Source of the DNA: Clostridia bacterium | GTDB lineage: Bacteria > Bacillota > Clostridia > Christensenellales > QALW01 | NCBI GenBank assembly: GCA_045630945.1 | Contig: JAZQTV010000015.1 | Span: 1 to 60,709 of the forward strand | Reading direction: 5' to 3' | Length of the DNA: 60,709 nucleotides | Shown here: piece by piece, positions 45,489 to 60,709 of the stretch | Position numbering within the stretch: the stretch's first letter is position 1 | How the letters are laid out: the number at the start of each line of letters is the position of its first letter | Position numbers and translations under genes: made by a program | Notes under the pieces: generated by a model | Told to the model about the DNA's origin: nothing | What the model saw: the letters and a program-made list of their open reading frames with translations, nothing else | Databases searched by the model: none

Positions 45489-47666
45489 TTACAGATGCAA
45501 TACTCTTTCCTTTATTTCCTGTGTTCTGCCCTGATTCCAGTACTGTGTGCCGATGTAGCCGCAGGTGCGACGCGCAACGTTCATAGTGCTTTGGTCGGTG
45601 TTGCCGCAGTTGGGACAGGTCCATTTAAGCTTGCCATCCTCATCCTCTTTTATTTCTATTTCGCCGTCGAAGCCGCATTTTTGACAGTAATCGCTTTTAG
45701 TATTAAGCTCGGCATACATAATGTTATCGTAAATGAACCGCATAACGCTTAATACTGCTTCGATATTATTTTGCATATTGGGTACTTCAACGTAAGAAAT
45801 CGCGCCGCCGGGGGAAAGTGATTGGAATTTGGCTTCAAGCTTAAGCTTTTCAAAGGCATCTATCGGCTCGGTAACGTGAACGTGATAGCTGTTTGTGATA
45901 TAGCTTTTATCCGTAACACCCTTTACGATACCAAACCGCTTTTGAAGGCACTTTGCAAACTTATAGGTGGTGCTTTCAAGAGGCGTGCCGTACAAGGAAT
46001 AATCGATATTTTCTTCCTTTTTCCATCTTGCAGTATATTCGTTAAGCTTTTGCATTATTTCTAAGCCCAGCTTTTCGCCCTCGGGCTCGGTAAGCTTTTT
46101 GCCCGAAACAGAATATACGCATTCCCAAAGTCCCGCATAACCAAGCGAAAGTGTTGAATATCCGCCGTGCAGGTACTTATCGATGGTTTCGCCCTTGTTA
46201 AGCCTTAAAAGCGCGCCGTGCTGCCACAAAATAGGCGCCGCATCGGAAAGCGTACCCGAAAGCCTTTCGTGACGTGCCTGAAGCGCCTGATGGCAAAGCT
46301 CCATTCTTTCGTCAAAAATCTTCCAGAACTCATCCATATCTCCGCCTGCGGAAAGACCGATATCCACAAGGTTTACCGTTACAACGCCCTGATTGAAGCG
46401 GCCGTAATACTTAGGCTTGTTATTTTCATCAACGAACGGTGTTAAAAAGCTTCGGCAACCCATACAGGTGTAGCAATGTCCTTCACCGTTTTTATCAATT
46501 TTGTTCTGAAGCATTATCTTTTCCGAAATATAATCCGGCACCATTCGCTTTGCGGTACATTTAGCCGCAAGCTCGGTAAGATAATAATATTTACTGTCTT
46601 TATGAATATTATCCTCCTCAAGCACATATATAAGCTTAGGGAATGCAGGAGTTATCCATACGCCCTTTTCATTTTTAACACCCTGAATGCGCTGATAAAG
46701 CGTTTCCTCTATAATAAGTGCAAGGTCCTTCTTTTCCTGCTCGTTCTTTGCTTCGTTAAGATACATAAATACAGTTACAAAGGGTGCCTGACCGTTAGTG
46801 GTCATAAGCGTTACAACCTGATACTGAATGGTCTGTATTCCGTTGCGTATCTCTTCACGCAGGCGGTTTTCTGTCAGCTTATCAAGCTTTTCTTCGCTTA
46901 AAACCTCGCCGATTGCCTTTAATTCAGCCTCTGCATTCTTACGAATCTTCTTTCTGCTTATATCAACAAAGGGTGCAAGATGAGTTAAGCTGATGCTTTG
47001 ACCGCCGTACTGGCATGAAGCAACCTGCGCGATTATCTGCGTTGCAATATTACAGGCGGTTGAAAAGCTGTGGGGCTTTTCAATTAACGTGCCGCTTATA
47101 ACGGTGCCGTTTTGAAGCATATCCTCAAGGTTTACAAGGTCGCAGTTATGCATATGTTGGGCAAAATAATCAGCATCGTGGAAATGTATAATTCCCTTTT
47201 CGTGTGCTTCAACTATTTCCTTGGGAAGCAAAATACGTCTTGTAATATCCTTGCTTACCTCGCCTGCCATATAATCACGCTGAACACTGTTTACGGTGGG
47301 GTTTTTGTTGGAATTTTCCTGCTTTACCTCTTCGTTATTGCACTCAATCAGCGAAAGTATCTGCTCGTCCGTGGTATTTGCCTTTCTTACGAGGGCACGG
47401 GTGTAACGATAGGTAATATAGTTACGTGCCACGTCAAACGCGCTTTGATTCATAATCTGATTTTCAACCATATCCTGTATCTCTTCAACGTTAAGGGAAC
47501 GGTTAAGATTCATCGCCGCACTTTCAACGTCTTCGGCAATACGCTTAATCTGAATAGGCGTCATTCTTGAAGATGGCACAACGCTTTCGTTTGCACGGGT
47601 TATCGCCTGAACTATCTTTTCCTTGTCAAAAACAACCTCTGCACCGCTTCGTTTAATTATTTTCAT
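45489..47666 (-). CDS. nrdD: Anaerobic ribonucleoside-triphosphate reductase (class III)
   Basis: N-terminal ATP-cone (MKIIKRSGAEVVFDKEKI), C-terminal zinc ribbon CQKCG...CPNCG and the glycyl-radical motif RRTCGYIG. Confidence 0.97.
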   Translation of the reverse strand: MKIIKRSGAEVVFDKEKIVQAITRANESVVPSSRMTPIQIKRIAEDVESAAMNLNRSLNVEEIQDMVENQIMNQSAFDVARNYITYRYTRALVRKANTTDEQILSLIECNNEEVKQENSNKNPTVNSVQRDYMAGEVSKDITRRILLPKEIVEAHEKGIIHFHDADYFAQHMHNCDLVNLEDMLQNGTVISGTLIEKPHSFSTACNIATQIIAQVASCQYGGQSISLTHLAPFVDISRKKIRKNAEAELKAIGEVLSEEKLDKLTENRLREEIRNGIQTIQYQVVTLMTTNGQAPFVTVFMYLNEAKNEQEKKDLALIIEETLYQRIQGVKNEKGVWITPAFPKLIYVLEEDNIHKDSKYYYLTELAAKCTAKRMVPDYISEKIMLQNKIDKNGEGHCYTCMGCRSFLTPFVDENNKPKYYGRFNQGVVTVNLVDIGLSAGGDMDEFWKIFDERMELCHQALQARHERLSGTLSDAAPILWQHGALLRLNKGETIDKYLHGGYSTLSLGYAGLWECVYSVSGKKLTEPEGEKLGLEIMQKLNEYTARWKKEENIDYSLYGTPLESTTYKFAKCLQKRFGIVKGVTDKSYITNSYHVHVTEPIDAFEKLKLEAKFQSLSPGGAISYVEVPNMQNNIEAVLSVMRFIYDNIMYAELNTKSDYCQKCGFDGEIEIKEDEDGKLKWTCPNCGNTDQSTMNVARRTCGYIGTQYWNQGRTQEIKERVLHL

Positions 47667-48977: not shown

Positions 48978-49000
48978 TAGCATCTAAACTTAAACAAACA

Positions 49001-49034
49001 AAACCGACAGATTTTACAGTCTGTCGGTTTTTTA
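49001..49034 (+). terminator. Rho-independent terminator; last core-genome feature before the low-GC island
   Basis: AAACCGACAGA / TCTGTCGGTTT stem followed by a T run. Confidence 0.85.
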
Positions 49035-49102
49035 TTTGTGTTGATTGCCCGCGCTTGCAAAAATATGTGCAACACAGCGCTAAAAAAATTTATTGCGCTA
49101 TG

Positions 49103-49294
49103 TCATGCCGCATTCTTGCGATTGGTATAATTACGCCTACTATATTCATCATAATCGTCAAGCACGTTATAAAACTTACTTTTCGTGCGTTTTCTTACAA
49201 CTCTTTTTCTGTTTCTTAAACGCTTTCCCTCAGTACAGATACTGATTAAAATATTTATACCAAGCCAGAGCATAATCACAATTAAAGCACCCAT
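49103..49294 (-). CDS. Small membrane protein (63 aa) with strongly basic tail
   Basis: AAGGAGG RBS 9 nt before the ATG. One TM helix (ALIVIMLWLGINILISIC) is followed by KRLRNRKRVVRKRTKSK. Confidence 0.5.
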   Translation of the reverse strand: MGALIVIMLWLGINILISICTEGKRLRNRKRVVRKRTKSKFYNVLDDYDEYSRRNYTNRKNAA

Positions 49295-49517
49295 TTAAAA
49301 GTACCTCCTTTTGTTATTTACACCCTGATTATACAACAAGAAAAGTACCGAAAACGGGCTTTTTTGAAGATTATTGTTGATGTGTATAAATATTCATTAT
49401 AAACGAATATATACAAATAATAGCTTCGTTTAATCATTACTATTGTATATCAATAAATTCCGTTAACAAAATATTAACAAAACAAAAAGTCTATTGTAGC
49501 CGTTTGGCTATATAAGC

Positions 49518-49548
49518 AAAAGGCTTCAAGATGACCTTGGAGCCTTTT
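49518..49548. terminator. Hairpin terminator just downstream of the 185-aa gene
   Basis: 13-bp stem AAAAGGCTTCAAG / CTTGGAGCCTTTT (one G-U pair) flanked by A/T runs. Confidence 0.65.
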
Positions 49549-49554
49549 GTTGTT

Positions 49555-50112
49555 TTAATCTACATTTTGTTCTTTTGCTTTCTTTAATTGATTGATAATG
49601 TTACGTTCCTCAAGTTTGCGTTTCTTATGATCAGATATGTAACGATTATATAAGTAACTCATATTCTGCTTTTTTGCGGCATTTACACAAGCCAGGAAAT
49701 ATTCTGTTTTTTTATAACCGTTGCTATTTATGTTTTCCATAAGTCTGTCGTATTCCTCCGGATAAAGCATGATAGAAAATCTTCTTTTCTTGAACGATTG
49801 CCGTGCAAGTGTAAGAGGATGAAGATGTTCACGGTTAGTTTTTTCTGTCTTTTTCAGATCGTCCTCAATAACTTCATTGGGCAAGTTATCTTTCTTTTGT
49901 GTATCCAACACTAAAACATCATCTTCTTGCAGTTCTTCACCATTGTTAATAAAGATATCAATGTTTTTTGTTTTTACACAAAAAGCGTGCGCGGTATCAT
50001 CGGTAGGATGTAGTATGATTTTATCCGAAAAGATCTTTGCCGCATTCAGTTCCATTTCGACAGATTTGCCTTTAAACATAAAAAAGGCCTTAATTTTTGA
50101 AAAAATTCTCAT
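49555..50112 (-). CDS. Hypothetical protein with C-terminal ribbon-helix-helix (CopG/MobC-like) segment
   Basis: AAGGAG RBS. The C-terminal KRRFSIMLYPEEYDRLMENINSNGYKKTEYFLACV fits the RHH strand-helix-helix pattern of MobC/CopG proteins. The N-terminal roughly 100 aa are unrecognised. Confidence 0.5.
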   Translation of the reverse strand: MRIFSKIKAFFMFKGKSVEMELNAAKIFSDKIILHPTDDTAHAFCVKTKNIDIFINNGEELQEDDVLVLDTQKKDNLPNEVIEDDLKKTEKTNREHLHPLTLARQSFKKRRFSIMLYPEEYDRLMENINSNGYKKTEYFLACVNAAKKQNMSYLYNRYISDHKKRKLEERNIINQLKKAKEQNVD

Positions 50113-50203
50113 ATAGATTTTTCTCCTTTATATTTATTAAGCACAGAAAGATTTGTGCCTTCATAACAGCAGCTGCAACCTCCTTTCGATGCTGTTAGGT
50201 GCA

Positions 50204-50238
50204 TAAAAAAACAGGCCTAAAACAATATTAGGCCTGTT
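50204..50238 (-). terminator. Terminator of the ATPase cassette
   Basis: Minus strand has a 10-bp stem ACAGGCCTAA / TTAGGCCTGT followed by T7, 27 nt after the stop. Confidence 0.8.
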
Positions 50239-50264
50239 AAGTAATAATAAATCATTTATAAGTA

Positions 50265-52490
50265 CTATTCTGTTTCAAGCATATTACAACTCTTATATAA
50301 TTCAACGAGTTGGTAGTTTGGTATGTCGATCAATGGTTCGTACATAAAAGCATTAACATGAATGCTTTCTGGAGTAATCAAAAGAACATCACTTATGATG
50401 GCTTTTTCTTCATCTGATAAATGATCATAAGCACGGTTAGCCCACTCGCGAGTTTGGTTGCTTTCACAAATTATATCAATTTCATGATTAATCAAGACAT
50501 GACGCAAAAAGAACTCAGCTTTCAAACGGATAGCTATAGAAAGAATAATTTTGTTTATCAAAGATACTCCTGTTGCATTTTCGTTGCAAATATCATCAGC
50601 CATCTTATAAACTGTATTGACCCATGTGTCTGATGCACAAGAGCATAATAAAAGTTCTAATGAAAACGGCTCTTTGATATGGTTCCAACAATCTTCAATA
50701 GTAATATTGACTGTATTTAACTTCACATGCAACATTCCTGTTAAATAATCTCTTAATGGATTATTTGCAGTGTATTCGCAAATGTTTCTGCAAAAAGGAA
50801 CTGACGAGATAAATGCACGTAGCATGTCTTTATTAGATAAATTGCCCGATCGAATTTTTTCAATAATACCAACATTAAAGAAATCTTTTCTATATTGAAA
50901 AGGAGCCATCGTTATTCTGCCATCAGCCTCCTTTTGCGCAATAAAACACATATTATAGCTTATATTAAGTCTAGAAGAAACGGTTCTGTAAAAATCAAAA
51001 TTATGTGTTAATATTAACAAATCAATCATGTTGTTACTTGATAACTCACTTAAATATTCTATTATTGCATACTTATTTGAATAATCAAATGAATCCGCAA
51101 TATCGTCTGCTACAACCAATTGTTTTTGACCGCTTTTATTTGCTGCATCTTTAATTTTTTCAAGATCAAAAAGAACCTGCAAAAGATATAGGGCATGTTT
51201 TTCGCCTACACTCAAGCATCCCATTAAATCATCTTTTGTTTTTTCTCGTTGCTCTTGACCGCGAACATAATTAAATGAAAGTCGCGCAGGTTCATCATTC
51301 AACATAACCCTTCTCGGGTTTTGGATTTCCACGTTAAAAGGCGCATGAAATCTTTTCTTAAACAATTCTACTACATACTCCCAGTGTTTTCGCTGTTTAT
51401 CAACTTCTTCCAATAGCGCATCAATCTCTTTTTTCTTCGTTTTAATTGAAGCGTTGAGAGTTCTAATATCAAATGATTCTGCATCAAGATATGATATCCA
51501 AATTGCTTTTTTTGTATTAGCCAAATCATTAAGATATTTTATAATTTCCTTATGTTCCTTTATTAAACCTTTTAACACTCGTGCGGCATTATTTCCATTA
51601 ATTAATTTGCTTATGCTATTATGTATACTTGATAATTCAGGCGTATTGTTAATTCGTTCAATTTCTTCATGTACAATCGAATTCCAAGAAGAAATATCGG
51701 AAATAACGGTACCGTCATTCAACAAAAGCTTATGCCTTGCTGAAAACAACCTTGTTTTCTCAATTATTTTTCCAAATTCAACGGCATTGTAATCATCAAA
51801 TTGCAAGCTAAGAAGTTTTGAATCTTTAACTAAATTCCCGTATGTATCAATGTATTGTTGAATTTTTTCTTTAAAAACTAAATCAGCTAATATTTTTTCC
51901 GTATATATATTAAATAATTGATCGTACTTTATTTCCGCCAATTCGCTATGCGGTATAATTTGTGATTCCGCGCCCAATAATGTTTCAATAATTAGTTCCC
52001 AATCGGCATCTATCGTTAATTCGAAGTCTTTGCAAATTTGAATACGAATTTGCTCTTCATCGAATGAAGTATAAGACTTAAAAACACTAATAAAAGAGTC
52101 AATTTCAGAAGAATATGCTCTATGTATAGCATCGTATTTTTGACGTAGCTCATCATCCGCCAATATGGTAGCAACGCTATCAGAATAAGCTTCGAATTTT
52201 TCATCAAAAGAATTAATAACATAAATATTCGGCTGATCATTTTTTCTATATTTAGTGTTTTCTGAATATACAGATGAATAATATTCGACTGTATATGTTG
52301 ATTTTCTCTCAGTAAATATACGATCAATTGGTTTCTTTTTCCTAGATATATCATCTAAAACCTTCGAAAAAGAACTCTTCATAACACCATTAGGAGCATA
52401 TATAATAGCCTTCGAATTATTAGAATCAAATTTAATTTCTTTAATGGTAAAATCCTCTAAGCCGTAACAATTTTTAAAGGTTGCTTTCAT
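50265..52490 (-). CDS. Coiled-coil ABC/SMC-like ATPase of the AAA_13 (RloC/PrrC-like) type with extra C-terminal domain
   Basis: Walker-A-like IIYAPNGVMKSS (aa 29-40). A long helical insert spans aa ~100-400. Signature-like LSVGEKHALYLLQVLF (aa 426-441), Walker B QLVVADDIADSFD (aa 457-469) and LILTHNFDF (aa 492-500) follow. A further ~240 aa C-terminal domain contains RHVLINH. AAGGAG RBS. Confidence 0.7.
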   Translation of the reverse strand: MKATFKNCYGLEDFTIKEIKFDSNNSKAIIYAPNGVMKSSFSKVLDDISRKKKPIDRIFTERKSTYTVEYYSSVYSENTKYRKNDQPNIYVINSFDEKFEAYSDSVATILADDELRQKYDAIHRAYSSEIDSFISVFKSYTSFDEEQIRIQICKDFELTIDADWELIIETLLGAESQIIPHSELAEIKYDQLFNIYTEKILADLVFKEKIQQYIDTYGNLVKDSKLLSLQFDDYNAVEFGKIIEKTRLFSARHKLLLNDGTVISDISSWNSIVHEEIERINNTPELSSIHNSISKLINGNNAARVLKGLIKEHKEIIKYLNDLANTKKAIWISYLDAESFDIRTLNASIKTKKKEIDALLEEVDKQRKHWEYVVELFKKRFHAPFNVEIQNPRRVMLNDEPARLSFNYVRGQEQREKTKDDLMGCLSVGEKHALYLLQVLFDLEKIKDAANKSGQKQLVVADDIADSFDYSNKYAIIEYLSELSSNNMIDLLILTHNFDFYRTVSSRLNISYNMCFIAQKEADGRITMAPFQYRKDFFNVGIIEKIRSGNLSNKDMLRAFISSVPFCRNICEYTANNPLRDYLTGMLHVKLNTVNITIEDCWNHIKEPFSLELLLCSCASDTWVNTVYKMADDICNENATGVSLINKIILSIAIRLKAEFFLRHVLINHEIDIICESNQTREWANRAYDHLSDEEKAIISDVLLITPESIHVNAFMYEPLIDIPNYQLVELYKSCNMLETE

Positions 52491-52550
52491 TTTATTCTCC
52501 TTATAAAAGTTTTAAAAACATGCGATATTCTTATAATTGAACTATTTATA

Positions 52551-52588
52551 ACAAAAGCAACCGGTTTGAATGTGTCAGACCTGTTGCC
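52551..52588 (-). other. Intergenic hairpin between the 4-TM gene and the ATPase gene (attenuator or partial terminator?)
   Basis: Minus strand has GCAACAGG...CCGGTTGC (7 of 8 bp pair) followed by TTTTGTT, in the 110-nt gap. Confidence 0.35.
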
Positions 52589-52600
52589 TAGTTTTAATTT

Positions 52601-53101
52601 TTATTTTGAAATATCGTAAGAACCATCGATATAATTTTCGCCGGTTTGTATAGCTTCGATAAGAGAATTCTTATCAGTCGTAATAGTTCCTTCGCTCGAA
52701 ACTAAAAACAAATTAATTCGATTGTCCAAAACAGCATATGCTTTGCGATAACATTTTTTGTGTTGTTGAGGGTTGATTGCATATCCAAATATAATAAAGG
52801 ATAATGAAACAATAGACAAAAACAACACACATTCTTTGCAAACGTACGGTTCTATAGACAAATAAATTACTGCCGCATTTGCAACAAAAGGTATAATAAC
52901 AAATGCATATTCCGTAAACATCCACAATGTAGCTGCAATAAGCCAAGTACGGGATCTTCCAACTGCCTTCTTTAATAAGAAATCTTTTGCAAGCATATCT
53001 TTGCGTATGTGATTATATCTATTCAATGACAAAAAAATCGCAATTATCCACACAACAAAAAACAAAAATATTACAACCGATATACCAATAATGTATTTCA
53101 T
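52601..53101 (-). CDS. Small polytopic membrane protein (166 aa), no recognised family
   Basis: AAGGA RBS. Hydrophobic helices lie at about aa 5-25, 52-80 (probably two) and 90-112, followed by a soluble ~50-aa tail. It sits directly upstream of the ATPase on the same strand. Confidence 0.6.
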   Translation of the reverse strand: MKYIIGISVVIFLFFVVWIIAIFLSLNRYNHIRKDMLAKDFLLKKAVGRSRTWLIAATLWMFTEYAFVIIPFVANAAVIYLSIEPYVCKECVLFLSIVSLSFIIFGYAINPQQHKKCYRKAYAVLDNRINLFLVSSEGTITTDKNSLIEAIQTGENYIDGSYDISK

Positions 53102-53216
53102 CTTTGTTTTATCCTTTATTCTATACGTTATTTCTTATTAATACAGCGAGAATTATCAATCGTGCCACAAAAAAGGAAACAGGAGAGCTTTTTGCTTGTA
53201 TTATAAATCCCATAAC

Positions 53217-53247
53217 ATTATACCATTTGCGGTATGATAAAGTCAAT
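53217..53247 (-). promoter_or_regulatory. Promoter of the 4-TM/ATPase cassette
   Basis: Minus strand reads TTGACT (53242-53247), 19 nt, TGgTATAAT (extended -10, TATAAT = 53217-53222). Confidence 0.55.
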
Positions 53248-53489
53248 ATTTAAAGCCAAATGTTGACAAAAAACAGGCTTGAGAGTTAACTCTAAGATTG
53301 TTAAACTATTGTTTTTCACCTGTTACCAACACAAAATAAACATAACATTGTATTTCCGTGCTCACTAAGGGATGTTTTTTGTTAAAAAAGATTCATTAGA
53401 GCAGTTGCTTATTCTTTGTAATACATATCATTTAGATATAATACATTTGGATGATATTATAGAGGATTTTTTATTACAAACACATATAT

Positions 53490-53518
53490 AAAAAACAGGC
53501 TTGAATTTCAAACCTGCT
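53490..53518 (-). terminator. Terminator of the Panacea toxin-antitoxin operon
   Basis: Minus strand has CAGGTTTGAA / TTCAAGCCTG stem (one G-U pair) followed by T6, about 70 nt after the stop at 53587. Confidence 0.75.
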
Positions 53519-53586
53519 TGGTATTAAATTACCATATGTTAGTTTATAAAAACGGATGCAAAAACAAATATCTGTAGTTATTGCGT

Positions 53587-54579
53587 TTATTCTAACCTTT
53601 GATGCTTTTCACAAAAATATAGTTTACCATCATGGAATAATTCGTCATCGTAAGGAAAAATATAATTACTATTATTAATCTCAAACTCTATATATGTAAT
53701 GTTTTTACCAGAAGAATCCTCTATAACATCAAAACATCTATACATCCCTGGAGAAATAATATACCTTAAATGGGGATCTTCGCTGCTTTTCATTTCACTA
53801 TATGAAATAAAAAACAGTATAGTCATAAATATAACCACAAACGCACATGTTAATACTTGAATTTTTCTTGCTTTTTTTAGTGTTTTGTTAGCTATATTAT
53901 CACAACTTTGTTGATCGTCTGAAATAACCACGACAGTTGGTTCTTTGTGGAAAAGAACAATGCCAAGAAGAATAACCATGGCAATGATAACCACAAGGTT
54001 TGGAACAATAAAAGCAATAACTGCAGAAGCACCACTTGCGTTGTTCAACCACGCACTTGATGTAGTGGCCACAGATAAAATAATTGTGATAACAGCAGTA
54101 AAAACTCCCATCAACGTAAGAACATGAGTTAAAATAGTGTGTTCTGTATCATTAACTTGGCTTTGAAACTTTTTTACACTTTTCTCAACGACATTAACTT
54201 TTGCCTCAAGTTCATGCTTTTTATCATTATAATCTTTTTGAGTAAATTGAACTTGAGAATCAAGCTTTATCATTTGCTTGCGTAGTTTATTGCCATCAAG
54301 AGAAAATTTAAAAGTATATAGCAATATATCAAGCGTTATATGTAATCTCTTTATCTCTGATTTTTTATCAGATCCATTTAATTCTGCAAATTCATGATTG
54401 TCAACCCTATTTTTTATTAAAGTAACGAACGAATAATATGTTTCCACTCTTTCGATTATATCTATGCCATCTAAACTATGAAGACGTATTTTTTCTAATT
54501 CAGAAAGAACCTCTTTAGTTTCTATGTATGAAAATTTCCTGAGTTCGTTTTCCTTTAATGTATTTAAATTAAGACTCAT
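53587..54579 (-). CDS. Coiled-coil + 3-TM protein (330 aa), candidate Panacea-associated toxin
   Basis: About 150 aa of N-terminal heptad-rich helix, then three hydrophobic helices (HVLTLMGVFTAVITIILSV, AVIAFIVPNLVVIIAMVILLGIVLF, VLTCAFVVIFMTILFFI), then a ~75-aa C-terminal domain. It starts 20 nt after the Panacea gene stop. Confidence 0.6.
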   Translation of the reverse strand: MSLNLNTLKENELRKFSYIETKEVLSELEKIRLHSLDGIDIIERVETYYSFVTLIKNRVDNHEFAELNGSDKKSEIKRLHITLDILLYTFKFSLDGNKLRKQMIKLDSQVQFTQKDYNDKKHELEAKVNVVEKSVKKFQSQVNDTEHTILTHVLTLMGVFTAVITIILSVATTSSAWLNNASGASAVIAFIVPNLVVIIAMVILLGIVLFHKEPTVVVISDDQQSCDNIANKTLKKARKIQVLTCAFVVIFMTILFFISYSEMKSSEDPHLRYIISPGMYRCFDVIEDSSGKNITYIEFEINNSNYIFPYDDELFHDGKLYFCEKHQRLE

Positions 54580-54599
54580 CAGAACCCCTTTTTATTGTT

Positions 54600-55082
54600 T
54601 CAAGACAAGATATTGTTTGTTTTATAGAATTTAAACATATCCTGCTTTGAAATGACTTGGCTATGATTTTCATCGTAGGGATTATATACATTTGCCCAAG
54701 GGCCACCAGCAATATGACTCATCATTACCAAGTCATACGTGTCAATATCAACAGTCTTGTTAAAAATATATTCAATGGCATTTTTCATGTTTTGCTCTAG
54801 CAAAGAATGATTTCCTTCTATTGGAGACATTTCGCCATTTTGATATTGCACAAACATATCATAAACCGAAGGAATTACAGGCCCGCTTGGCCAAGCATAA
54901 AACTCATCATTGAACATCGATTTACCATGGTTATCTTGCATGAATTTCGCATCACTAAAATATAATAATTTTTGAAGACGTTTACATGTCATCGAGATTC
55001 TTTCACTATATAACTTTCCTTCATTATATTTGTTAGTTAATTCTATAATAAGGTTTGCAGCAGCAGTACACATAACTGTCAT
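54600..55082 (-). CDS. Panacea (DUF4065, SocA/GepA-like) domain antitoxin
   Basis: ISMTCKRLQKLLYFSDAKFM...FNDEFYAWPSGPVIPSVYDMF...MMSHIAGGPW follows the DUF4065 pattern (KLQKLLYY...F.AW.YGPV.P.VY...SH...PW). GGAGG lies 7 nt before the ATG at 55082; the track start at 55085 is a TTG. Confidence 0.8.
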   Translation of the reverse strand: MTVMCTAAANLIIELTNKYNEGKLYSERISMTCKRLQKLLYFSDAKFMQDNHGKSMFNDEFYAWPSGPVIPSVYDMFVQYQNGEMSPIEGNHSLLEQNMKNAIEYIFNKTVDIDTYDLVMMSHIAGGPWANVYNPYDENHSQVISKQDMFKFYKTNNILS

Positions 55083-55338
55083 CAAGATACCTCCACTTAA
55101 TTAAAGTTTGGCTATAATATAGTATGCAGGTATTCAATCCCGCTATACAAAGCAAACTAAAATTAATAAGGTAACATCCTCCTTTCGTTTTTAAAAAAGT
55201 TAGCTAAAACAACGAAGCTCGCAACACTATCGAGTAACGTGGGTTAAAAAACATCACTTCAACAGGTATTTACAATAATGCACCTATCGTCCAAAATAGA
55301 GGCATTCTACTATTAATCGAATTTTCTGTCAATATATT

Positions 55339-55394
55339 TGTAAACAAGTTTACATATCAACAAGTAAATATGTTTACTTGTAAACATATTTACA
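55339..55394. promoter_or_regulatory. Three adjacent palindromes sharing a GTAAA(C)/(G)TTTAC core (operator array or leader hairpins)
   Basis: TGTAAAC-aa-GTTTACA (55339-55354), CAAGTAAA-tatg-TTTACTTG (55361-55380) and TGTAAA-cata-TTTACA (55379-55394). All arms are perfect. They lie immediately downstream of the promoter at 55408-55436. Confidence 0.6.
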
Positions 55395-55407
55395 ACAATT
55401 TTATGAT

Positions 55408-55436
55408 ATTATACCACACACGGTACTTGTGGTCAA
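55408..55436 (-). promoter_or_regulatory. Strong consensus-like promoter reading toward the Panacea operon
   Basis: Minus strand reads TTGACC (55431-55436), 17 nt, TGgTATAAT (TATAAT = 55408-55413). Confidence 0.6.
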
Positions 55437-55454
55437 GAGCAAAAGGGCATATTG

Positions 55455-55486
55455 TAAAAAAATAAGAGGGGGAGCATTGCTCCCCT
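55455..55486 (-). terminator. Terminator after the orphan-toxin immunity gene
   Basis: GGGGAGC / GCTCCCC stem, followed on the minus strand by a T-rich run (CTTATTTTTTT). Confidence 0.7.
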
Positions 55487-55555
55487 AAAATAATTAATTA
55501 TGATTAAAGTACTTGAGTGCGGCTCAAGTTGAACAAGTTACCGTTCCCTGGGGTG

Positions 55556-55813
55556 TTATTTTCTTTTCACAATGATAAGCTCTGCCGAATTATCATCTAA
55601 AGAATTATACTCATCAAGATGAATGTGTTTAAATTCCGGTACGTTTTCTTGAGCTAACTCCAACAAATGTCTTGCTAATGAAATCAATCCCCCGCTATCA
55701 GCTTCAATTATCACACTATTATTATCAATTGAACATTTTATTGAAAAATCATCCTCCCATACAAACAAAAAATTTTTTCCATCGTATTTAGGTACAAATA
55801 TATCCATTTGCAT
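55556..55813 (-). CDS. Small immunity protein for the orphan Rhs toxin tip (possibly Imm32-like)
   Basis: 85-aa acidic ORF starting 6-12 nt after the toxin stop, with a GAGAGG RBS. The position is typical of cognate immunity genes. The family resemblance is from memory only. Confidence 0.65.
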   Translation of the reverse strand: MQMDIFVPKYDGKNFLFVWEDDFSIKCSIDNNSVIIEADSGGLISLARHLLELAQENVPEFKHIHLDEYNSLDDNSAELIIVKRK

Positions 55814-55819
55814 TACCTC

Positions 55820-58324
55820 TCAATCAAATATATATACATGAGAATTAGCATTCACTTTAAACTTTCCATGTTTTAATGGGTTGGGTATAAGTGTTTCAAA
55901 ATTAAAATGCGGGGCACCTGCATGATTGTTAATTGGCGCTAAATCAGATGCTGTCATTCTAACTTGACGCAATCCGTCTGACGAAACAAATCTGCCTGGA
56001 GACATTTCGGAATAGCCCTCCCCGAGAAAGTCGTTGGCTAAATCAAGCGCATCTGACGAATTAACTTTAATCCCATCTTCAGGCAACGCTTTTTGAGTTC
56101 CACACAGATTATGAACCAAAATCGATTCTTTTCCAACATAATACGTATGGAGATCAGCAACCTCAAAATTGTAAACGGCGACTGGTATCTCGAGAATCTC
56201 GTGTTGGATTTCTTCAACAATGACGTATTCCCCATTTACAGAAACAAGGATATCACCAGCACGTAATTCACAAGCTGCTGTCCATCCTTTTACCGGAGAA
56301 TAAAACGGATGCTCGTTAGTGCAAACAATTTTTTCGCCATTAACTGTTATGGTTATAAGTTCGTTTGTCTCATTGACAAACGTTTGAACAACTTGCTTTA
56401 ATTCGGTTTCACCGGTTTCCGGATTTGTTGCCCAAACATAATCACCGGCACATATATCTTCAATATTGACAAAGCCTGTTGATGAAAGTATTACAGTTCC
56501 TGCTACAAAACAGGCATTACTATTCGCTCCTCCTGTTATTGCACCTGTTATTGCACCGGATAATGCACCGTCAGCCATACCATTCAAGGCAGCCTCACCG
56601 GCACCGTCCCAGCTCCCTGTCGTTAATCGGTGGTTTACAGCTCCGCTTACGGCGCCATTTACTGCTCCTGTTACAAAGCCAACAGCAGCTCCTTTTGCCG
56701 CACCTGCGGCAATACAAGCGATTGCAGTTCCTGTACCCGCAGTTGCAACAGCAACGACTGCTACAACCGCAACAACAGCAACGGCTGCAACAAGTTTTTT
56801 TGCCCAGTTCGGCCAGTTGCCGCTTTCATCCGTCATATTTATGGGATTATTAAAGCAATATACAAATAAGTTGTAACCGTTTACTGATTCGCCCGTGCCT
56901 GAAACAACAGTATCGCAATTTATAAACCTGCCCACATTAGCATCATAATATCTTGACTGCAGATAATACAATCCCGTTTCGGTATCAAAGTAATATCCCC
57001 GATACCTTAACGGGTTAATGTTGGCTATGTGGTTAGCGTTACCTGATACATTATTACCATTACCGTCGGTAATAGCAATATGGTTACCCCAAGAATCATA
57101 GGTATATTGTGCGACAATAGTACCACTTGAATCTATTATACCTATGATATCATTCTGACCGTTACGGAAATAGTAATATTCATTACCGTTGTAACGGAAT
57201 CCTGTAGCTAAACCGTTCTCATCGTAGGTGTACCAGATTACATTGTCGCCGGTCTTTTGCATTACAATAGTAGTGCCGTTTAAATAATAATCAGTACGAA
57301 CACCGTTAATGGTTTTGGATGTCCTGATACCGTTATCGTCATAAGCGTATGTGATACCATTGTTACCTTTTGTAACACCGCTTAACTGTCTGCCACCAGT
57401 CCAAGTAAAGCTTTCGCCATTTATCCAGTTAAGAGGATTGCCAATAGCATCATAATTGATGTTAACACCATTGTAGTTAGTCAGTAAATCACGCCAATTA
57501 GTATCACCGTAGGTGTATACCTTTTGATTGATAAGATTGCCTAACGCGCCTGTGGTATAGGCATACTCATTTACGGCAAGGATATTGCCGCCATTATCGT
57601 ATGTGTAGGTAATAGTTTTGCCTAATTCATAATTATCCTCGCGGACAAGCTGATTGAGTGCATCATAGTGATAATGCACAAGCTCATATCCTGCAGGATG
57701 TCCGATGGACGTTATATTACCGTTTGCATCATAGGCATAGTTATATGCCATACCGTTACTATATGATACGTAACTCAACTGTGTTGAAGTATTTTTGTAG
57801 TTTACATCCTTAAATCCATATGAAGTTGTAAAGGGTGTGGTTGTGTTGAGGGTTGTTGAGGTGCGTCTGCCGAGGTTATCATACTTATATGTAAGCTTTT
57901 CTGTACCGTTATAGCTTACACCGTAGATAACGCCATTTTTTTGTGAAAGGTCAAACGAATCCGTCTCACCGTAGCGCCACTCGGTTGTAAGGGTATCAGA
58001 GCCAAAGCCGAACTTAACGTCGCTTGCTCTGTTAAACTCATCATAAGTGATTTTAATTACAAAACCTTGAGAGGTACGAACTTGTACAGGTCTGCCTACA
58101 AAATCGTATAAATATTTGTATGTAATATCTTGTACCAAATCAGTAGCCGAATGTATGTTTCCACGGCTATCGTAAACATATGAAAATTTGTCAATACCGT
58201 CAATGGTGAGCTTTATTACACGCTGTTGGTCATCGTAGGTGTATTTGCGTGTATCACCGTTACCATAGGTTGCGGTGTCAAGCAGACCTGTTACCTCATC
58301 GTACAGGTTTGTAATAAGTGTATT
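55820..58324 (-). CDS. Orphan Rhs/YD-repeat C-terminal cassette: YD repeats + Rhs core end + Gly/Ala-rich pre-toxin region + Hint domain + 95-aa unknown toxin tip
   Basis: My manual translation shows the frame open from 58324, just after a TGA at 58325-58327. There is no ATG; the only in-frame start is the TTG at 58138 used by the track. YD repeats are YTYDxxGN-like. The core end is YYLQSRYYDANVGRF...NNPINMTDESGNW. The Gly/Ala-rich region is aa 441-542 of the 772-aa track protein (numbered from the TTG at 58138). The Hint domain CFVAGT...ILVHN spans nt 56108-56512 and the toxin tip nt 55823-56107. Confidence 0.8.
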   Translation of the reverse strand, partial: NTLITNLYDEVTGLLDTATYGNGDTRKYTYDDQQRVIKLTIDGIDKFSYVYDSRGNIHSATDLVQDITYKYLYDFVGRPVQVRTSQGFVIKITYDEFNRASDVKFGFGSDTLTTEWRYGETDSFDLSQKNGVIYGVSYNGTEKLTYKYDNLGRRTSTTLNTTTPFTTSYGFKDVNYKNTSTQLSYVSYSNGMAYNYAYDANGNITSIGHPAGYELVHYHYDALNQLVREDNYELGKTITYTYDNGGNILAVNEYAYTTGALGNLINQKVYTYGDTNWRDLLTNYNGVNINYDAIGNPLNWINGESFTWTGGRQLSGVTKGNNGITYAYDDNGIRTSKTINGVRTDYYLNGTTIVMQKTGDNVIWYTYDENGLATGFRYNGNEYYYFRNGQNDIIGIIDSSGTIVAQYTYDSWGNHIAITDGNGNNVSGNANHIANINPLRYRGYYFDTETGLYYLQSRYYDANVGRFINCDTVVSGTGESVNGYNLFVYCFNNPINMTDESGNWPNWAKKLVAAVAVVAVVAVVAVATAGTGTAIACIAAGAAKGAAVGFVTGAVNGAVSGAVNHRLTTGSWDGAGEAALNGMADGALSGAITGAITGGANSNACFVAGTVILSSTGFVNIEDICAGDYVWATNPETGETELKQVVQTFVNETNELITITVNGEKIVCTNEHPFYSPVKGWTAACELRAGDILVSVNGEYVIVEEIQHEILEIPVAVYNFEVADLHTYYVGKESILVHNLCGTQKALPEDGIKVNSSDALDLANDFLGEGYSEMSPGRFVSSDGLRQVRMTASDLAPINNHAGAPHFNFETLIPNPLKHGKFKVNANSHVYIFD
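56941..58118 (-). repeat. Direct repeat copy A (orphan Rhs YD-repeat region)
   Basis: It aligns without indels to 59532-60709 at a constant offset of 2591 nt. By eye the copies are highly similar, with identical runs such as 57468-57514 = 60059-60105. Similarity stops at the YYD codons, where the toxin-proximal parts diverge. Confidence 0.85.
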
Positions 58325-58352: not shown

Positions 58353-58880
58353 TCACCTATCATTTTCTTGCTCTTTTTCAGAAGCCTTCTTGGAACGATA
58401 TTTCTTTGGAACAAACACCCGATATAATAAATCTTCAATAAACCGAATTATAGGATTGCGAGAACGATAATGTGTGTTCATCATAATATTAGCGGTTATA
58501 AACATACAAAATAAACAAACCATACTAATACAGTATATTACTCCATGAAAGCCGCTACCCGTTATTTCACACTTTATTACATATACATTCAGAAATATCA
58601 CGCTACATATTGCACTCACAAGGTTAATTATAAAAATAACGTAATGCCATTTTTTAACTAAGTGCCTCATATCCCAAAACAACAGTTTTTTAATAAATCC
58701 TGCTTTTTTTCTGATTTTCCATAGTTCTTTCTTTGCACGTTTTCCATAAGCTAATTCAGTATCCTTTGCAAACATCTCGCCAGCATTGAATAAACAAAAA
58801 AATATTATAAGTACCACTATGCTCATTGCGCTTACAAGTAAGCATTGAAAGAATATACTGATAAATTTACTTAAAAACAT
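58353..58880 (-). CDS. Polytopic membrane immunity protein (175 aa) for the main Rhs toxin
   Basis: About four TM helices. AAGAGG RBS. The ATG overlaps the last 14 nt of the Rhs gene. GC content is very low. Confidence 0.65.
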   Translation of the reverse strand: MFLSKFISIFFQCLLVSAMSIVVLIIFFCLFNAGEMFAKDTELAYGKRAKKELWKIRKKAGFIKKLLFWDMRHLVKKWHYVIFIINLVSAICSVIFLNVYVIKCEITGSGFHGVIYCISMVCLFCMFITANIMMNTHYRSRNPIIRFIEDLLYRVFVPKKYRSKKASEKEQENDR

Positions 58881-60709
58881 TTCTAAACCTCTTGTATAAC
58901 GCTTTTGAGACGCTTACTGCACCCGATTGTACTCCTGATATAAACATAGGCTTAATAAGATATTTTTTATACGCAAATTTTGTTTGAGAAACGTAATATT
59001 TAACACCTTTTTGTATTATCTTTTTTGATCCTGTAGCTATTTTCTTGGTTAAGCGGCTATTTAATGTTTTTATGTTTACATACTTGCCCATTCCTTTGTC
59101 GTTACCGGTAATGGCGCCAACTGCGCCGTCAAAAAGCATATCACCTACATCGAAATTATCAAAACCCTTGTTACTTATCACTTGGTTTGCGGCATTACTT
59201 ACCATAGAAATCGCAGAATTCGCTATCATAGAAACACCGGCACCAACGCCTGAAGCAGCAAGCGCGCCACTTGCCATACCACCAACCACGGCTACACCGA
59301 GACCTTCAGACCAAGTTTTTCCCTCTGCCAAATTGCTAGCAACTTGGGTGATACCGGAAACTATACCGCCCAAAATAGCGCCAACGGCTATATGCCAAAA
59401 CTCTCCGTCACTATCAACTCTCGTAATGGGATTGTTATCACAATATGTAAACAAATTTTTGTCGGTTAATTCAGTGGGTGTTGCAATTAAAGCGTTTTCA
59501 TTATCAGGATTAAGTATTCTACGTGCTTCAGTATCATAATACCTTGATTGTAGATAATATAATCCTGTCTCGGTATCGAAGTAATAACCCCTATATCTTA
59601 ACGGATTTATGTTGGCTATGTGATTGGGATTAGAAGCAACGTTGTTGCCGTTACCGTCGGTAATAGCAATATGCTTACCCCAAGAATCATAAGTATATTG
59701 TGCAACAGTTGTACCGCTTGAGTTTATAATACCAATGATATCATTCTGACCGTTGCGGAAATAATAATATTCATTACCATTATATCTGAAGCCTGTTGCT
59801 AAACCGTTTTCATCATAGGTGTACCAGATTACGTTATCTCCGGTCTTTTGCATTATAACGGTAGTGCCATTGAGATAATAATCTGTCCTTATGCCGTTAA
59901 CTGTCTTACTTGTCCTGATACCATTATCATCATAAGCATAGCTAATGGTATTATTGCCTTTTGATACGCCTGTAAGCTGACGACCACCTGACCAAGTGAA
60001 TGATTCACCGTTTATCCAATTAGTTGGATTACCGACAGCATCATAATTGATGTTAACGCCATTGTAGTTAGTCAGTAAATCACGCCAATTAGTATCACCG
60101 TAGGTATACACTTTTTGACTAACAATGTTACCGAGTGCACCCGTTGTATAGGCATACTCATTTACGGCAAGTATATTGCCGCCATTATCATAAGTGTATG
60201 TAATAGTCTTATTTAATTGTGCATTATCCTCTCTTGTTAACTGATTAAGTTCATCGTAGTAATACTTAACAATATCATAGCCTGCAGGGTCTATAATGTT
60301 TGTAATGTTACCGTTTACATCATAGGCATAGTTATATGCCATACCGTTGCTATATGATACGTAACTTAACTGTGTTGAGGTGTTTTTATAATTGAGGTCT
60401 TTAAAGCCGTAGCTTGTAACAAACGGAGTTGTTGTATTGAGGGTTGTTGAGGTGCGTCTGCCTAAATTATCATACTTGTAGGTAAGCTTCTCTGTACCAT
60501 TGTAACCAACACCGTAGATAACACCGTTTTTCTGCGAAAGATCAAAGGAATCGGTTTCACCATAGCGCCATTCGGTAGTAAGGGTATCTGAACTAAAGCC
60601 GAACTTAACGTCACTTGCTCTGTTGTACTCATCATAGGTTATCTTTATAACAAAACCCTGTGATGTACGTACTTGTACAGGTCTGCCTACGAAATCGTAT
60701 AAATATTTG
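58867..60709 (-). CDS. Rhs/WapA-type YD-repeat polymorphic toxin, C-terminal part (N-terminus beyond the right edge)
   Basis: By my translation the frame stays open upstream of the track ATG at 60342 (…QLSYVSYSNGMAYNY), at least to about 60372, and the in-frame, indel-free nucleotide homology to the open orphan frame suggests it continues to the window edge. YD repeats, then the core end YYLQSRYYDTEARRILNPD...NNPITRVDSDGEFW. The 178-aa C-terminal region (nt 58870-59403) is a Gly/Ala/Ser-rich hydrophobic segment plus a Lys-rich tail. Confidence 0.85.
   Translation of the reverse strand, partial: KYLYDFVGRPVQVRTSQGFVIKITYDEYNRASDVKFGFSSDTLTTEWRYGETDSFDLSQKNGVIYGVGYNGTEKLTYKYDNLGRRTSTTLNTTTPFVTSYGFKDLNYKNTSTQLSYVSYSNGMAYNYAYDVNGNITNIIDPAGYDIVKYYYDELNQLTREDNAQLNKTITYTYDNGGNILAVNEYAYTTGALGNIVSQKVYTYGDTNWRDLLTNYNGVNINYDAVGNPTNWINGESFTWSGGRQLTGVSKGNNTISYAYDDNGIRTSKTVNGIRTDYYLNGTTVIMQKTGDNVIWYTYDENGLATGFRYNGNEYYYFRNGQNDIIGIINSSGTTVAQYTYDSWGKHIAITDGNGNNVASNPNHIANINPLRYRGYYFDTETGLYYLQSRYYDTEARRILNPDNENALIATPTELTDKNLFTYCDNNPITRVDSDGEFWHIAVGAILGGIVSGITQVASNLAEGKTWSEGLGVAVVGGMASGALAASGVGAGVSMIANSAISMVSNAANQVISNKGFDNFDVGDMLFDGAVGAITGNDKGMGKYVNIKTLNSRLTKKIATGSKKIIQKGVKYYVSQTKFAYKKYLIKPMFISGVQSGAVSVSKALYKRFRNVFK
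59532..60709 (-). repeat. Direct repeat copy B (main Rhs gene), truncated by the window edge
   Basis: Partner of 56941-58118. Encoded proteins are near-identical (for example NGGNILAVNEYAYTTGALGN and DNVIWYTYDENGLATGFRYNGNEYYYFRNGQNDIIGII in both). Confidence 0.85.

Follow-up and report, generated by a model that had tools for sequence, protein, structure and literature searches.

An SMC-like ATPase gene in an AT-rich clostridial island belongs to the catalogued single-gene phage defence candidate family PDC-S46 and has a private, conserved C-terminal domain

The described systems closest to the ATPase analyzed here are the anticodon nucleases PrrC and RloC and the ABC ATPases of several defence systems. 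PrrC is encoded within EcoprrI, a type Ic R-M locus, and the literature describes a constant linkage of prrC to type I hsd R-M loci; the protein has an ATPase-gated C-terminal effector and no helical insert in its ATPase. RloC is a single polypeptide in which the head is split by a helical insert, with a CxxC zinc hook and a long antiparallel coiled coil, and is followed by a C-terminal helical domain; coupling to DNA damage has been proposed for it (PMC2610378). The published catalytic triads are R320/E324/H356 in PrrC and R692/E696/H737 in RloC. Septu and Lamassu pair their ATPases, PtuA and LmuB, with separate effectors (PtuB/HNH and LmuA). The PDC families are candidates defined by their embedding within known defence systems, and PDC-S46 is entered in PADLOC as a single-gene phage defence candidate (Payne et al., preprint 10.1101/2024.01.29.577857). 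A literature search for PDC-S46 or AAA_13 defence found nothing; PDC-S46 is named in no paper's main text and is not one of the PDCs that a cold-seep study put to the test.

The window, meaning the whole 60,709-nucleotide stretch of Clostridia bacterium DNA that was analyzed, contains two co-directional genes that the original prediction interpreted as an unnamed two-gene defence system consisting of a sensor ATPase and a membrane effector. The predicted layout was largely recovered: both open reading frames, the extended −10 promoter, the terminator after the ATPase gene, the Panacea neighbour and the two Rhs cassettes are all present. The features of the locus are as follows.

49555–50112 (−): weak RHH open reading frame, NikA-like match below threshold (E 0.04)
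50210–50238 (−): intrinsic-terminator-like hairpin with T-run 3′ of the ATPase gene, 11-bp stem with 5 GC pairs
50265–52490 (−): ATPase gene of the PDC-S46 family, 741 aa
52545–52553 (−): extended −10-like motif TGnTATAAA, read from the sequence, 55 nt 5′ of the ATPase ATG
52546–52597 (−): hairpin plus following U-run within the 110-bp intergenic spacer, dG −14.9 kcal/mol, z −3.85
52601–53101 (−): membrane-protein (TM) gene, 166 aa
53217–53246 (−): sigma-70-like promoter with extended −10 5′ of the TM gene, TTGACT-18-TATAAT with upstream TG, 11/12
54600–55085 (−): SocA_Panacea gene (E 1e-16)
55820–58138 (−): RHS plus PT-HINT gene
58867–60342 (−): RHS-repeat gene

The supposed RHH gene exists as an open reading frame with a NikA-like match that stays sub-threshold. 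The downstream 185-aa open reading frame showed no significant kinship (E 0.047) to a MobC-like gene that adjoins one ATPase relative. The GC content is 0.29–0.33 across 49–56 kb versus about 0.43 elsewhere, which confirms the low-GC block; its lowest 1-kb bin (0.286) is 53–54 kb, immediately upstream of the cassette. The promoter-like site at 53246–53217 (−) has the joint top score in the region (11/12), in AT-rich DNA where such matches occur at chance level (31 found versus 28.6 expected). The stable hairpin and U-run in the spacer were overlooked in the original prediction. None of 200 shuffled sequences folded equally well, and the criteria of the terminator scan exclude this hairpin owing to its long loop. 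It is possibly the terminator of the upstream TM gene, and the TGnTATAAA motif, a pattern match alone, may serve the ATPase gene as a promoter of its own.

The large gene is a member of a widespread, already catalogued family. The 741-aa protein matches the PADLOC PDC-S46 HMM (PDLC05023) with an E-value of 6.8e-190 and 631 bits, and the alignment runs end to end, from protein residues 2–737 against profile positions 5–717 of 719. Length and architecture are the same as in the family. At E ≤ 1 the PADLOC search returned PDC-S46 and a chance Cas5b match and nothing else; the protein also matches phrog_38705 (E 1e-90). Its homologues make up more than 4,600 clusters when grouped at 90% identity; at 50% the number is about 1,155. 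They come from many phyla and include plasmid-borne copies. The large protein therefore holds up as a defence candidate by its full-length PDC-S46 match, and the claim that it belongs to no named system does not, as it maps cleanly onto this single-gene candidate. Assignment to AbiL, Lamassu, Septu or PD-T4-4 was rejected on the same PADLOC result and on the lack of a conserved partner gene. The predicted AAA_13 type is correct in kind, an SMC-like ABC ATPase that carries a further domain at its C-terminus, but Pfam AAA_13 (PF13166) does not match the window protein, whose only Pfam hit is a sub-threshold SMC_N (E 0.004). Among 47 relatives, 22 match AAA_13 at E ≤ 0.01, the best with 1.2e-17, and all six relatives that were rescanned scored 41–55 bits against a threshold of 36. 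In relatives the profile covers the head C-lobe and the distal insert and stops before the C-terminal domain.

An AF2 model of the 741-aa protein (pLDDT 85) contains the helical insert (~280 aa) and the additional C-terminal domain (~210 aa) that had been anticipated from the sequence. The gene divides into four segments.

52185–52490 (−): ABC head N-lobe, aa 1–102, from AF2 strands and helix
51351–52184 (−): helical insert, aa 103–380, from AF2 secondary structure, a short coiled-coil base with a multi-helix cap
50901–51350 (−): ABC head C-lobe, aa 381–530, with signature, Walker B and H-loop
50268–50900 (−): all-helical C-terminal domain, aa 531–741, from the domain model and conservation

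Foldseek places the head with SMC/Rad50 heads and their coiled coil (E 2e-6), as had been expected, with condensin and RecF heads also among the top matches; the retron-IA ATPase, Lamassu LmuB and Septu PtuA, which likewise combine the ABC head fold and a helical insert, are recovered at E 1e-4 to 3e-2. The predicted order of motifs (YAPNGVMKSS, LSVGEK, LVVADD and THN) is present and family-conserved in an alignment of 91 sequences with 25–67% identity to the window protein. The P-loop is non-canonical. It reads Y31-A-P-N-G-V-M-K38-S-S in the window ATPase and N-G-x-M-K-[ST]-S in the family, with Met at the position of the usual GK[ST] glycine; K38 is kept in 91/91 sequences, N34 in 90/91 and M37 in 88/91. 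The signature L-S427-V-G-E430-K, the Walker B LVVAD462-D463 and the H-loop T495-H496-N497 are invariant (91/91), except for T495 (89/91), and Walker B is D-D, not D-E. With the P-loop Met and the D-D Walker B, the protein may hydrolyse ATP poorly or not at all. The insert is modelled as many short helices, not one long hairpin, and residues 103–380 include one Cys and no CxxC zinc hook.

The C-terminal domain (aa 531–741; domain model pLDDT 86, pTM 0.87) is private to this protein family. Across 1,155 representative clusters it is confined to the C-terminus of this ATPase architecture. R568, H588, Q679, H711, N713, E718 and D722 are kept in 91/91 sequences, and N569, R655 and E659 in 90/91. 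Foldseek searches of the PDB and BFVD gave no match at E < 0.5; the weak local matches included three HEPN proteins, HepT (6m6u_H), 8xeh_D and YutE (1ylm), with E-values of 2.7–4.4, probabilities of 0.13–0.33 and TM scores of at most 0.44. An hmmsearch against the PDB returned just chance matches (listerin and glutaredoxin), and Pfam gave a sub-threshold UBC_like in 10 of 21 members and nothing else. Significant sequence or fold homology to a nuclease was found in none of Pfam, PDB or BFVD. A HEPN assignment through the Rx4-6H motif was rejected, with no conserved Arg 4–6 residues before the invariant H588 or H711. The domain is the presumed effector of the PDC-S46 ATPase, and judged by its conservation the invariant His/Arg/Glu cluster looks catalytic.

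The 166-aa protein is a small polytopic membrane protein; hydropathy gives 3–4 TM segments where four had been predicted. Its family comprises 36 clusters with neither a domain nor a name, and a profile search added just more unnamed proteins of ~165 aa. There was no significant Pfam or NCBIfam match and no PADLOC or PHROGs match at all. The suggested SLATT identity, like that of a holin or another effector, found no supporting match in these four collections. Where the context of its relatives is visible, they mostly lie beside PlsC-type acyltransferase and acyl-AMP-ligase genes, and the TM gene is the sole gene that the window has in common with those loci.

The original prediction amounts to a lineage-specific two-gene operon with the ATPase as the sensor of infection and the membrane protein as its cell-killing effector. 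The two genes share a direction and one low-GC block and are separated by 110 bp; the top promoter-like site is 5′ of the TM gene, a terminator-like site follows the ATPase gene, and the TM gene stands in place of an upstream regulator that is found in the closest clade and missing in the window. As the one good promoter-like site of the cassette precedes the TM gene, transcription could read through from there into the ATPase gene. At other loci the two genes are not found in synteny. Relatives of the two share 0 loci among 96 ATPase loci and 9 TM-protein loci, and a tblastn search of every ATPase locus gave no relative of the TM protein; at least 700 bp of upstream DNA was readable in 76 of the 96. 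ATPase relatives were sought by a metagenome scan with an alignment query, a single-protein scan of genome contigs having given 2 loci. A PlsC-type acyltransferase gene adjoins the TM gene in 6/9 of its loci, and none of the 9 has an ATPase gene. Ahead of the closest ATPase relative (L012, 80% identity) lies a terminator-like hairpin and no TM gene, and the window resembles relatives at the DNA level only from the ATPase ribosome-binding site onward, about 15–20 bp before the ATG. The hairpin with U-run and the −10-like motif in the spacer, the conserved candidate effector domain within the ATPase itself and the lack of a SLATT or defence-family match for the TM protein also count against an operon, which we regard as highly improbable. 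Clustering of the neighbouring genes, up to ±3 from the ATPase, revealed no universal partner, and the biggest neighbour clusters cover 8 loci. With no neighbour family common to all 96 loci, these data match the single-gene designation of PDC-S46 and show no conserved partner gene such as an ABC-3C system would have. The ATPase is thus very likely a single-gene unit without the TM gene as a partner. The TM gene is a chance neighbour, cargo that landed in the same AT-rich island, probably with its own promoter and terminator. The pair is not a new two-gene system, because the ATPase belongs to a catalogued single-gene family and the TM gene is a chance neighbour.

The recurrent neighbours of ATPase relatives are R-M methylases, Vsr and restriction enzymes, Fic/DOC pairs, recombinases, integrases, conjugation genes and plasmid leading regions, and in some relatives R-M genes immediately precede the ATPase gene. 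The same kind of context has been described for RloC-like ABC-HEPN proteins (PMC3710099). Upstream of the gene in the closest clade, a LexA/CI-like HTH-S24 repressor recurs. The window copy lacks it, and nothing structural sets the copy apart from the family. The neighbours in the window are the TM gene, the Panacea pair, the Rhs genes and the weak RHH open reading frame, and no R-M gene is beside the ATPase.

Our preferred explanation, which we hold with somewhat better than even confidence, is a stand-alone, mobile, single-gene anti-phage or abortive-infection protein with an ABC-gated C-terminal effector; a role for the PDC-S46 ATPase in defence or abortive infection is itself moderately probable. 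The ABC head and insert would act as the sensor or switch. An infection cue would trigger nucleotide-dependent dimerization or a conformational change of the head, the switch would release the C-terminal domain as a toxic effector, and the growth of the infected cell would halt. By analogy with PrrC and RloC, whose triads R655-x3-E659...H711 echoes, the effector would most plausibly be a metal-independent RNase, an activity that we consider possible but doubtful.

Two further explanations were weighed against this one. The ATPase might not be immune at all, acting instead as an SMC/RecF/Rad50-like maintenance, partition or addiction factor of mobile elements with a C-terminal domain that binds DNA or protein. 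The top fold matches are to SMC, Rad50, condensin and RecF heads, and plasmid locations, neighbours for recombination, integration and conjugation, the non-canonical P-loop and Walker B and the lack of detected nuclease homology all fit such a role. Against it, the PADLOC entry rests on embedding in known defence systems and R-M and toxin genes often adjoin relatives, no conserved Mre11-, kleisin- or RecOR-type partner occurs among the neighbours, the insert lacks the length for a long coiled coil, with neither hinge nor zinc hook, and the invariant His/Arg/Glu cluster looks catalytic; we consider a maintenance role unlikely. The other explanation makes the ATPase a divergent PrrC/RloC orthologue that cleaves tRNA anticodon loops upon R-M inhibition or DNA damage. 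RloC and PDC-S46 are alike as single polypeptides of about 740–800 aa with a split head and a C-terminal helical domain, and in their mobile, R-M- or Fic-rich neighbourhoods; the SOS-type repressor upstream in the closest clade would fit the coupling to DNA damage. R655-x3-E659...H711 (at least 90/91) near the C-terminus resembles the PrrC and RloC triads, but its R-to-H spacing is 56 residues versus 36 in PrrC and 45 in RloC. Membership in PrrC or RloC was rejected, as neither PADLOC model is matched at E ≤ 1. The AAA_13 alignment ends before the C-terminal domain, which has no detectable homology to that of RloC, and the CxxC zinc hook, the long antiparallel coiled coil and the Rx4-6H motif are missing; the P-loop Met for Gly is a further difference from RloC. 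PrrC differs by its lack of an insert and by its hsd linkage, with no hsd genes near the window ATPase. Orthology with PrrC or RloC is accordingly improbable. Septu and Lamassu differ from PDC-S46 in having separate effectors, where PDC-S46 has a fused private domain and no conserved partner.

Within the preferred explanation of a stand-alone defence protein, a tentative joint reading is that the effector domain of PDC-S46 is of a new kind, lacking relatives in solved structures and in Pfam, and is driven by a head with a glycine-less P-loop that may sense nucleotides and not hydrolyse them. In one clostridial clade, the position behind a LexA/CI-like autocleavable repressor would make the gene a suicide module triggered by DNA damage or prophage induction, a control that the window copy would have lost.

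The two-gene claim of a sensor with a membrane effector is not real and should therefore not be carried forward as a discovery. The useful, albeit modest, remainder of the finding is PDC-S46 as a large candidate family. Its C-terminal domain is a candidate effector domain with no detectable structural relative. K38, D462/D463 and H496 in the head and R568, H588, R655, E659 and H711 in the C-terminal domain are targets for mutation, and the HTH-S24 repressor upstream in the closest clade is a possible regulatory handle. If PDC-S46 truly is a PrrC/RloC-like RNase, the paradigm would be extended to a third, more abundant architecture.

The ATPase matches the PADLOC phage defence candidate family PDC-S46 over its full length (E = 6.8e-190, positions 5-717 of the 719 in the profile) and has no other meaningful match in PADLOC-DB. 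PDC systems are 145 'phage defence candidates' picked out by guilt-by-embedding within known defence systems; their S series holds the single-gene candidates (Payne et al., preprint, 10.1101/2024.01.29.577857). The HMM match and the single-gene organisation place the ATPase in PDC-S46, and the real feature in the window is a further member of this catalogued, uncharacterised single-gene defence-candidate family. PHROGs also returns a full-length match, to a family of unknown function. At 90% identity the ATPase family comprises over 4,600 clusters, nearly all of them 740-750 aa long. Members are carried by plasmids of Proteobacteria, Firmicutes, Actinobacteria, Bacteroidetes and Leptospira, nearly always with a hypothetical annotation, and the family appears in 1 of 50,697 phage records.

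In the AF2 model of the ATPase (pLDDT 85), residues 1-102 form the N-lobe of an ABC head, 103-380 a multi-helix insert, 381-530 the C-lobe of the head and 531-741 an all-helical C-terminal domain. Foldseek searches with the model return SMC, Rad50 and condensin heads (E = 2e-6), along with the retron-IA, Lamassu and Septu defence ATPases. The motif set originally read from the window protein is present and is conserved family-wide in an alignment of 47 relatives. The AAA_13 assignment holds for 22 of these 47, which match the Pfam profile, but the window protein itself has no match. In six rescanned relatives the match scores 41-55 bits against a threshold of 36 and covers only the distal insert and the head C-lobe. 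Fold and motifs place the ATPase in the ABC ATPase/AAA_13 superfamily, with the Pfam threshold reached by relatives only. Conservation was counted over 91 sequences with 25-67% identity to the window protein, and head residues K38, S427, E430, D462, D463, D469, H496 and N497 are present in 91/91. The P-loop reads Y-A-P-N-G-x-M-K-[ST]-S throughout the family (aa 31-40, in the 52490-52380 region of the window), with Met in 88/91 sequences at the position of Gly in the canonical GK[ST]. Walker B is D-D, not D-E. The head may be a nucleotide binder rather than an efficient hydrolase.

The window features surrounding the ATPase gene are as follows.

45489-47666, anaerobic ribonucleotide reductase gene nrdD, preceding the SH3-domain gene at the edge of the low-GC block
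49555-50112, minus strand, 185-aa ORF downstream of the ATPase gene, sub-threshold NikA-like RHH match (E = 0.04)
50238-50210, minus strand, terminator-like hairpin downstream of the ATPase gene
50265-52490, minus strand, ATPase ORF, 741 aa
52601-53101, minus strand, ORF for the upstream membrane protein (TM protein), 166 aa
53246-53217, minus strand, promoter-like site TTGACT-18-TATAAT with TG upstream, 11/12, joint best in the scanned region
54600-55085, minus strand, SocA_Panacea antitoxin-type gene (E = 1e-16)
55820-58138, minus strand, Rhs protein, PT-HINT domain, short C-terminal tip
58867-60342, minus strand, second RHS-repeat ORF

As an observation of sequence, the original prediction stands: both ORFs, the extended -10 site, the terminator-like hairpin, the low GC and the motifs are all there. 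Promoter-like sites number 31 in the scan against 28.6 expected, the chance level for AT-rich DNA. A second 11/12 site (52606-52635, plus strand, TTGAAA-18-TATAAT) lies at the TM gene's 3' end, reads antisense into it, and may simply reflect AT-richness. The GC content is 0.29-0.33 at 49-56 kb and about 0.43 in the rest of the window; this low-GC block (49000-56000) starts right after the SH3-domain gene and extends into the Rhs region. The whole window is free of tRNA genes, and the ORFs scanned (38-60 kb) showed no integrase. The neighbours were largely confirmed, with the Panacea gene and Rhs ORFs found and the RHH call reduced to its sub-threshold NikA-like match. The 185-aa ORF has no relaxase nearby, and its similarity to the MobC-like gene adjoining an ATPase relative (L002) is not significant (E = 0.047). 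After the SocA_Panacea gene lies a 330-aa protein (53587-54579, minus strand) with a coiled-coil N-terminal half, several hydrophobic segments and weak sub-threshold matches to the MakA pore-forming toxin and to holin-like families; a membrane-acting toxin of a Panacea pair is a plausible role for it. An 85-aa ORF after the Rhs/PT-HINT gene (55556-55813, minus strand) may be an immunity gene, and a 175-aa ORF without a family (58353-58880, minus strand) follows the second RHS-repeat ORF. The Rhs ORFs are either two cassettes or one main gene and an orphan.

The original prediction had paired a sensor ATPase with a membrane effector in an unnamed system. Among 5.8 billion proteins, a single-sequence search found 10 relatives of the TM protein and a profile search 36; all of them measure about 165-177 aa and have neither domain nor name. 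The 36 clusters are apparently Clostridia/Oscillospirales, with a FGYAINPQRHKKCYRKAY motif strongly conserved past the last TM segment. The TM protein was not found to belong to SLATT or another effector family. None of nine loci with TM-protein relatives encodes an ATPase nearby. A PlsC-type acyltransferase gene adjoins the relative in 6/9, three of which also carry AMP-binding acyl-ligase genes; the remaining 3/9 are copies of one context and show only an unannotated 201-aa upstream gene. The TM gene alone is common to these loci and the window, and its product may be a component of a lipid or acyl-modification cluster. Reciprocally, no TM-protein relative is encoded in 96 loci with ATPase relatives (30-80% identity; genomes, metagenomes, public assemblies and plasmids; 76/96 with at least 700 bp of upstream DNA), and clustering of neighbour genes gave no universal partner. 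At the DNA level, the window and its closest relatives become similar at the ribosome-binding site, about 15-20 bp ahead of the ATPase ATG, and the closest relative (L012, 80% identity) has a terminator-like hairpin upstream and no TM gene. Within the 110-bp spacer of the window a stable hairpin precedes a U-run (52597-52546, dG -14.9 kcal/mol, z -3.85, equalled by 0/200 shuffles), and past it the sequence reads TGnTATAAA 55 nt ahead of the ATPase start. Elsewhere the two genes show no synteny, and the ATPase is a catalogued single-gene entry; both are outcomes that the original prediction had named as refuting it. What looked like a self-contained two-gene sensor/effector cassette is a chance adjacency within an AT-rich island in which Rhs and Panacea modules also lie.

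In six loci of the closest clade (74-78% identity), a 237-242-aa HTH_3 and Peptidase_S24 (LexA/CI-like) gene lies upstream of the ATPase at a distance of 42-43 bp (L002:3590-4318, L014:3625-4338, L015:206-919, L016:95-808, L017:61-774 and L102:4245-4958). It matches transcriptional-repressor families in PHROGs. L012/L013, L101, L103/L104 and the window lack it, and in the window its position is taken by the TM gene. The HTH_3/Peptidase_S24 gene recurs across four distinct flanking contexts, which suggests control coupled to SOS or induction in this clade. In L014 the module is flanked on one side by an RVT_1 reverse transcriptase and an STM3845-family gene (185-2025) and on the other by a serine recombinase and a methyltransferase/MvaI_BcnI R-M pair; all of these together make up a compact defence islet carried by a mobile element. 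Near distant relatives are Dcm methylase, Vsr and restriction enzyme genes or N4/N6 methylase and restriction enzyme genes, each immediately upstream in some loci (for the latter, the methylase genes). Other neighbours are LlaJI- or Eco29kI-type R-M genes, an AbaSI-family endonuclease, serine and tyrosine recombinases, and plasmid leading-region genes including an antirestriction gene. Fic/DOC toxin-antitoxin pairs (a 62-67-aa gene and a ~200-aa Fic/DOC-like gene at +1/+2) immediately follow the ATPase in eight loci (L028-L031, L042, L043, L047, L050). These surroundings are those seen around RloC-like ABC-HEPN proteins, for which a HEPN survey described an R-M and DOC neighbourhood of this kind (PMC3710099).

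The ATPase may work like PrrC or RloC, although membership in either cannot be assigned. RloC was rejected on the lack of a CxxC zinc hook and of a profile match, and PrrC on the presence of the insert and the lack of hsd linkage and of a profile match; no HEPN motif was found. A profile of residues 531-741 matched 1,155 clusters among 1.84 billion representative proteins. The C-terminal domain is private to the ATPase architecture, since every one of the 150 matches listed places it C-terminally in a protein of about 720-760 aa or an apparent N-terminally truncated fragment. Its model is confident (pLDDT 86, pTM 0.87). The fold has no significant match in PDB or BFVD, and sequence profile searches returned nothing credible; HEPN toxins (6m6u_H, 8xeh_D, 1ylm; E = 2.7-4.4) are the sole recurring theme among weak local fold matches. 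R568, H588, Q679, H711, N713, M716, E718, P719 and D722 are present in 91/91 sequences and N569, R655 and E659 in 90/91. R655/E659/H711 follow the R-x3-E...H pattern of the catalytic triads published for PrrC (R320/E324/H356) and RloC (R692/E696/H737) (PMC2610378), a likeness of pattern that does not establish homology. The best reading, for which we infer defence role, gating logic and chemistry alike, is that the ATPase head would gate a fused C-terminal effector acting through abortive infection, with RNase activity the most plausible chemistry. As an experimental target the family is a reasonable choice, being abundant and so far a candidate only, and combining a C-terminal domain without known relatives with an unusual P-loop.
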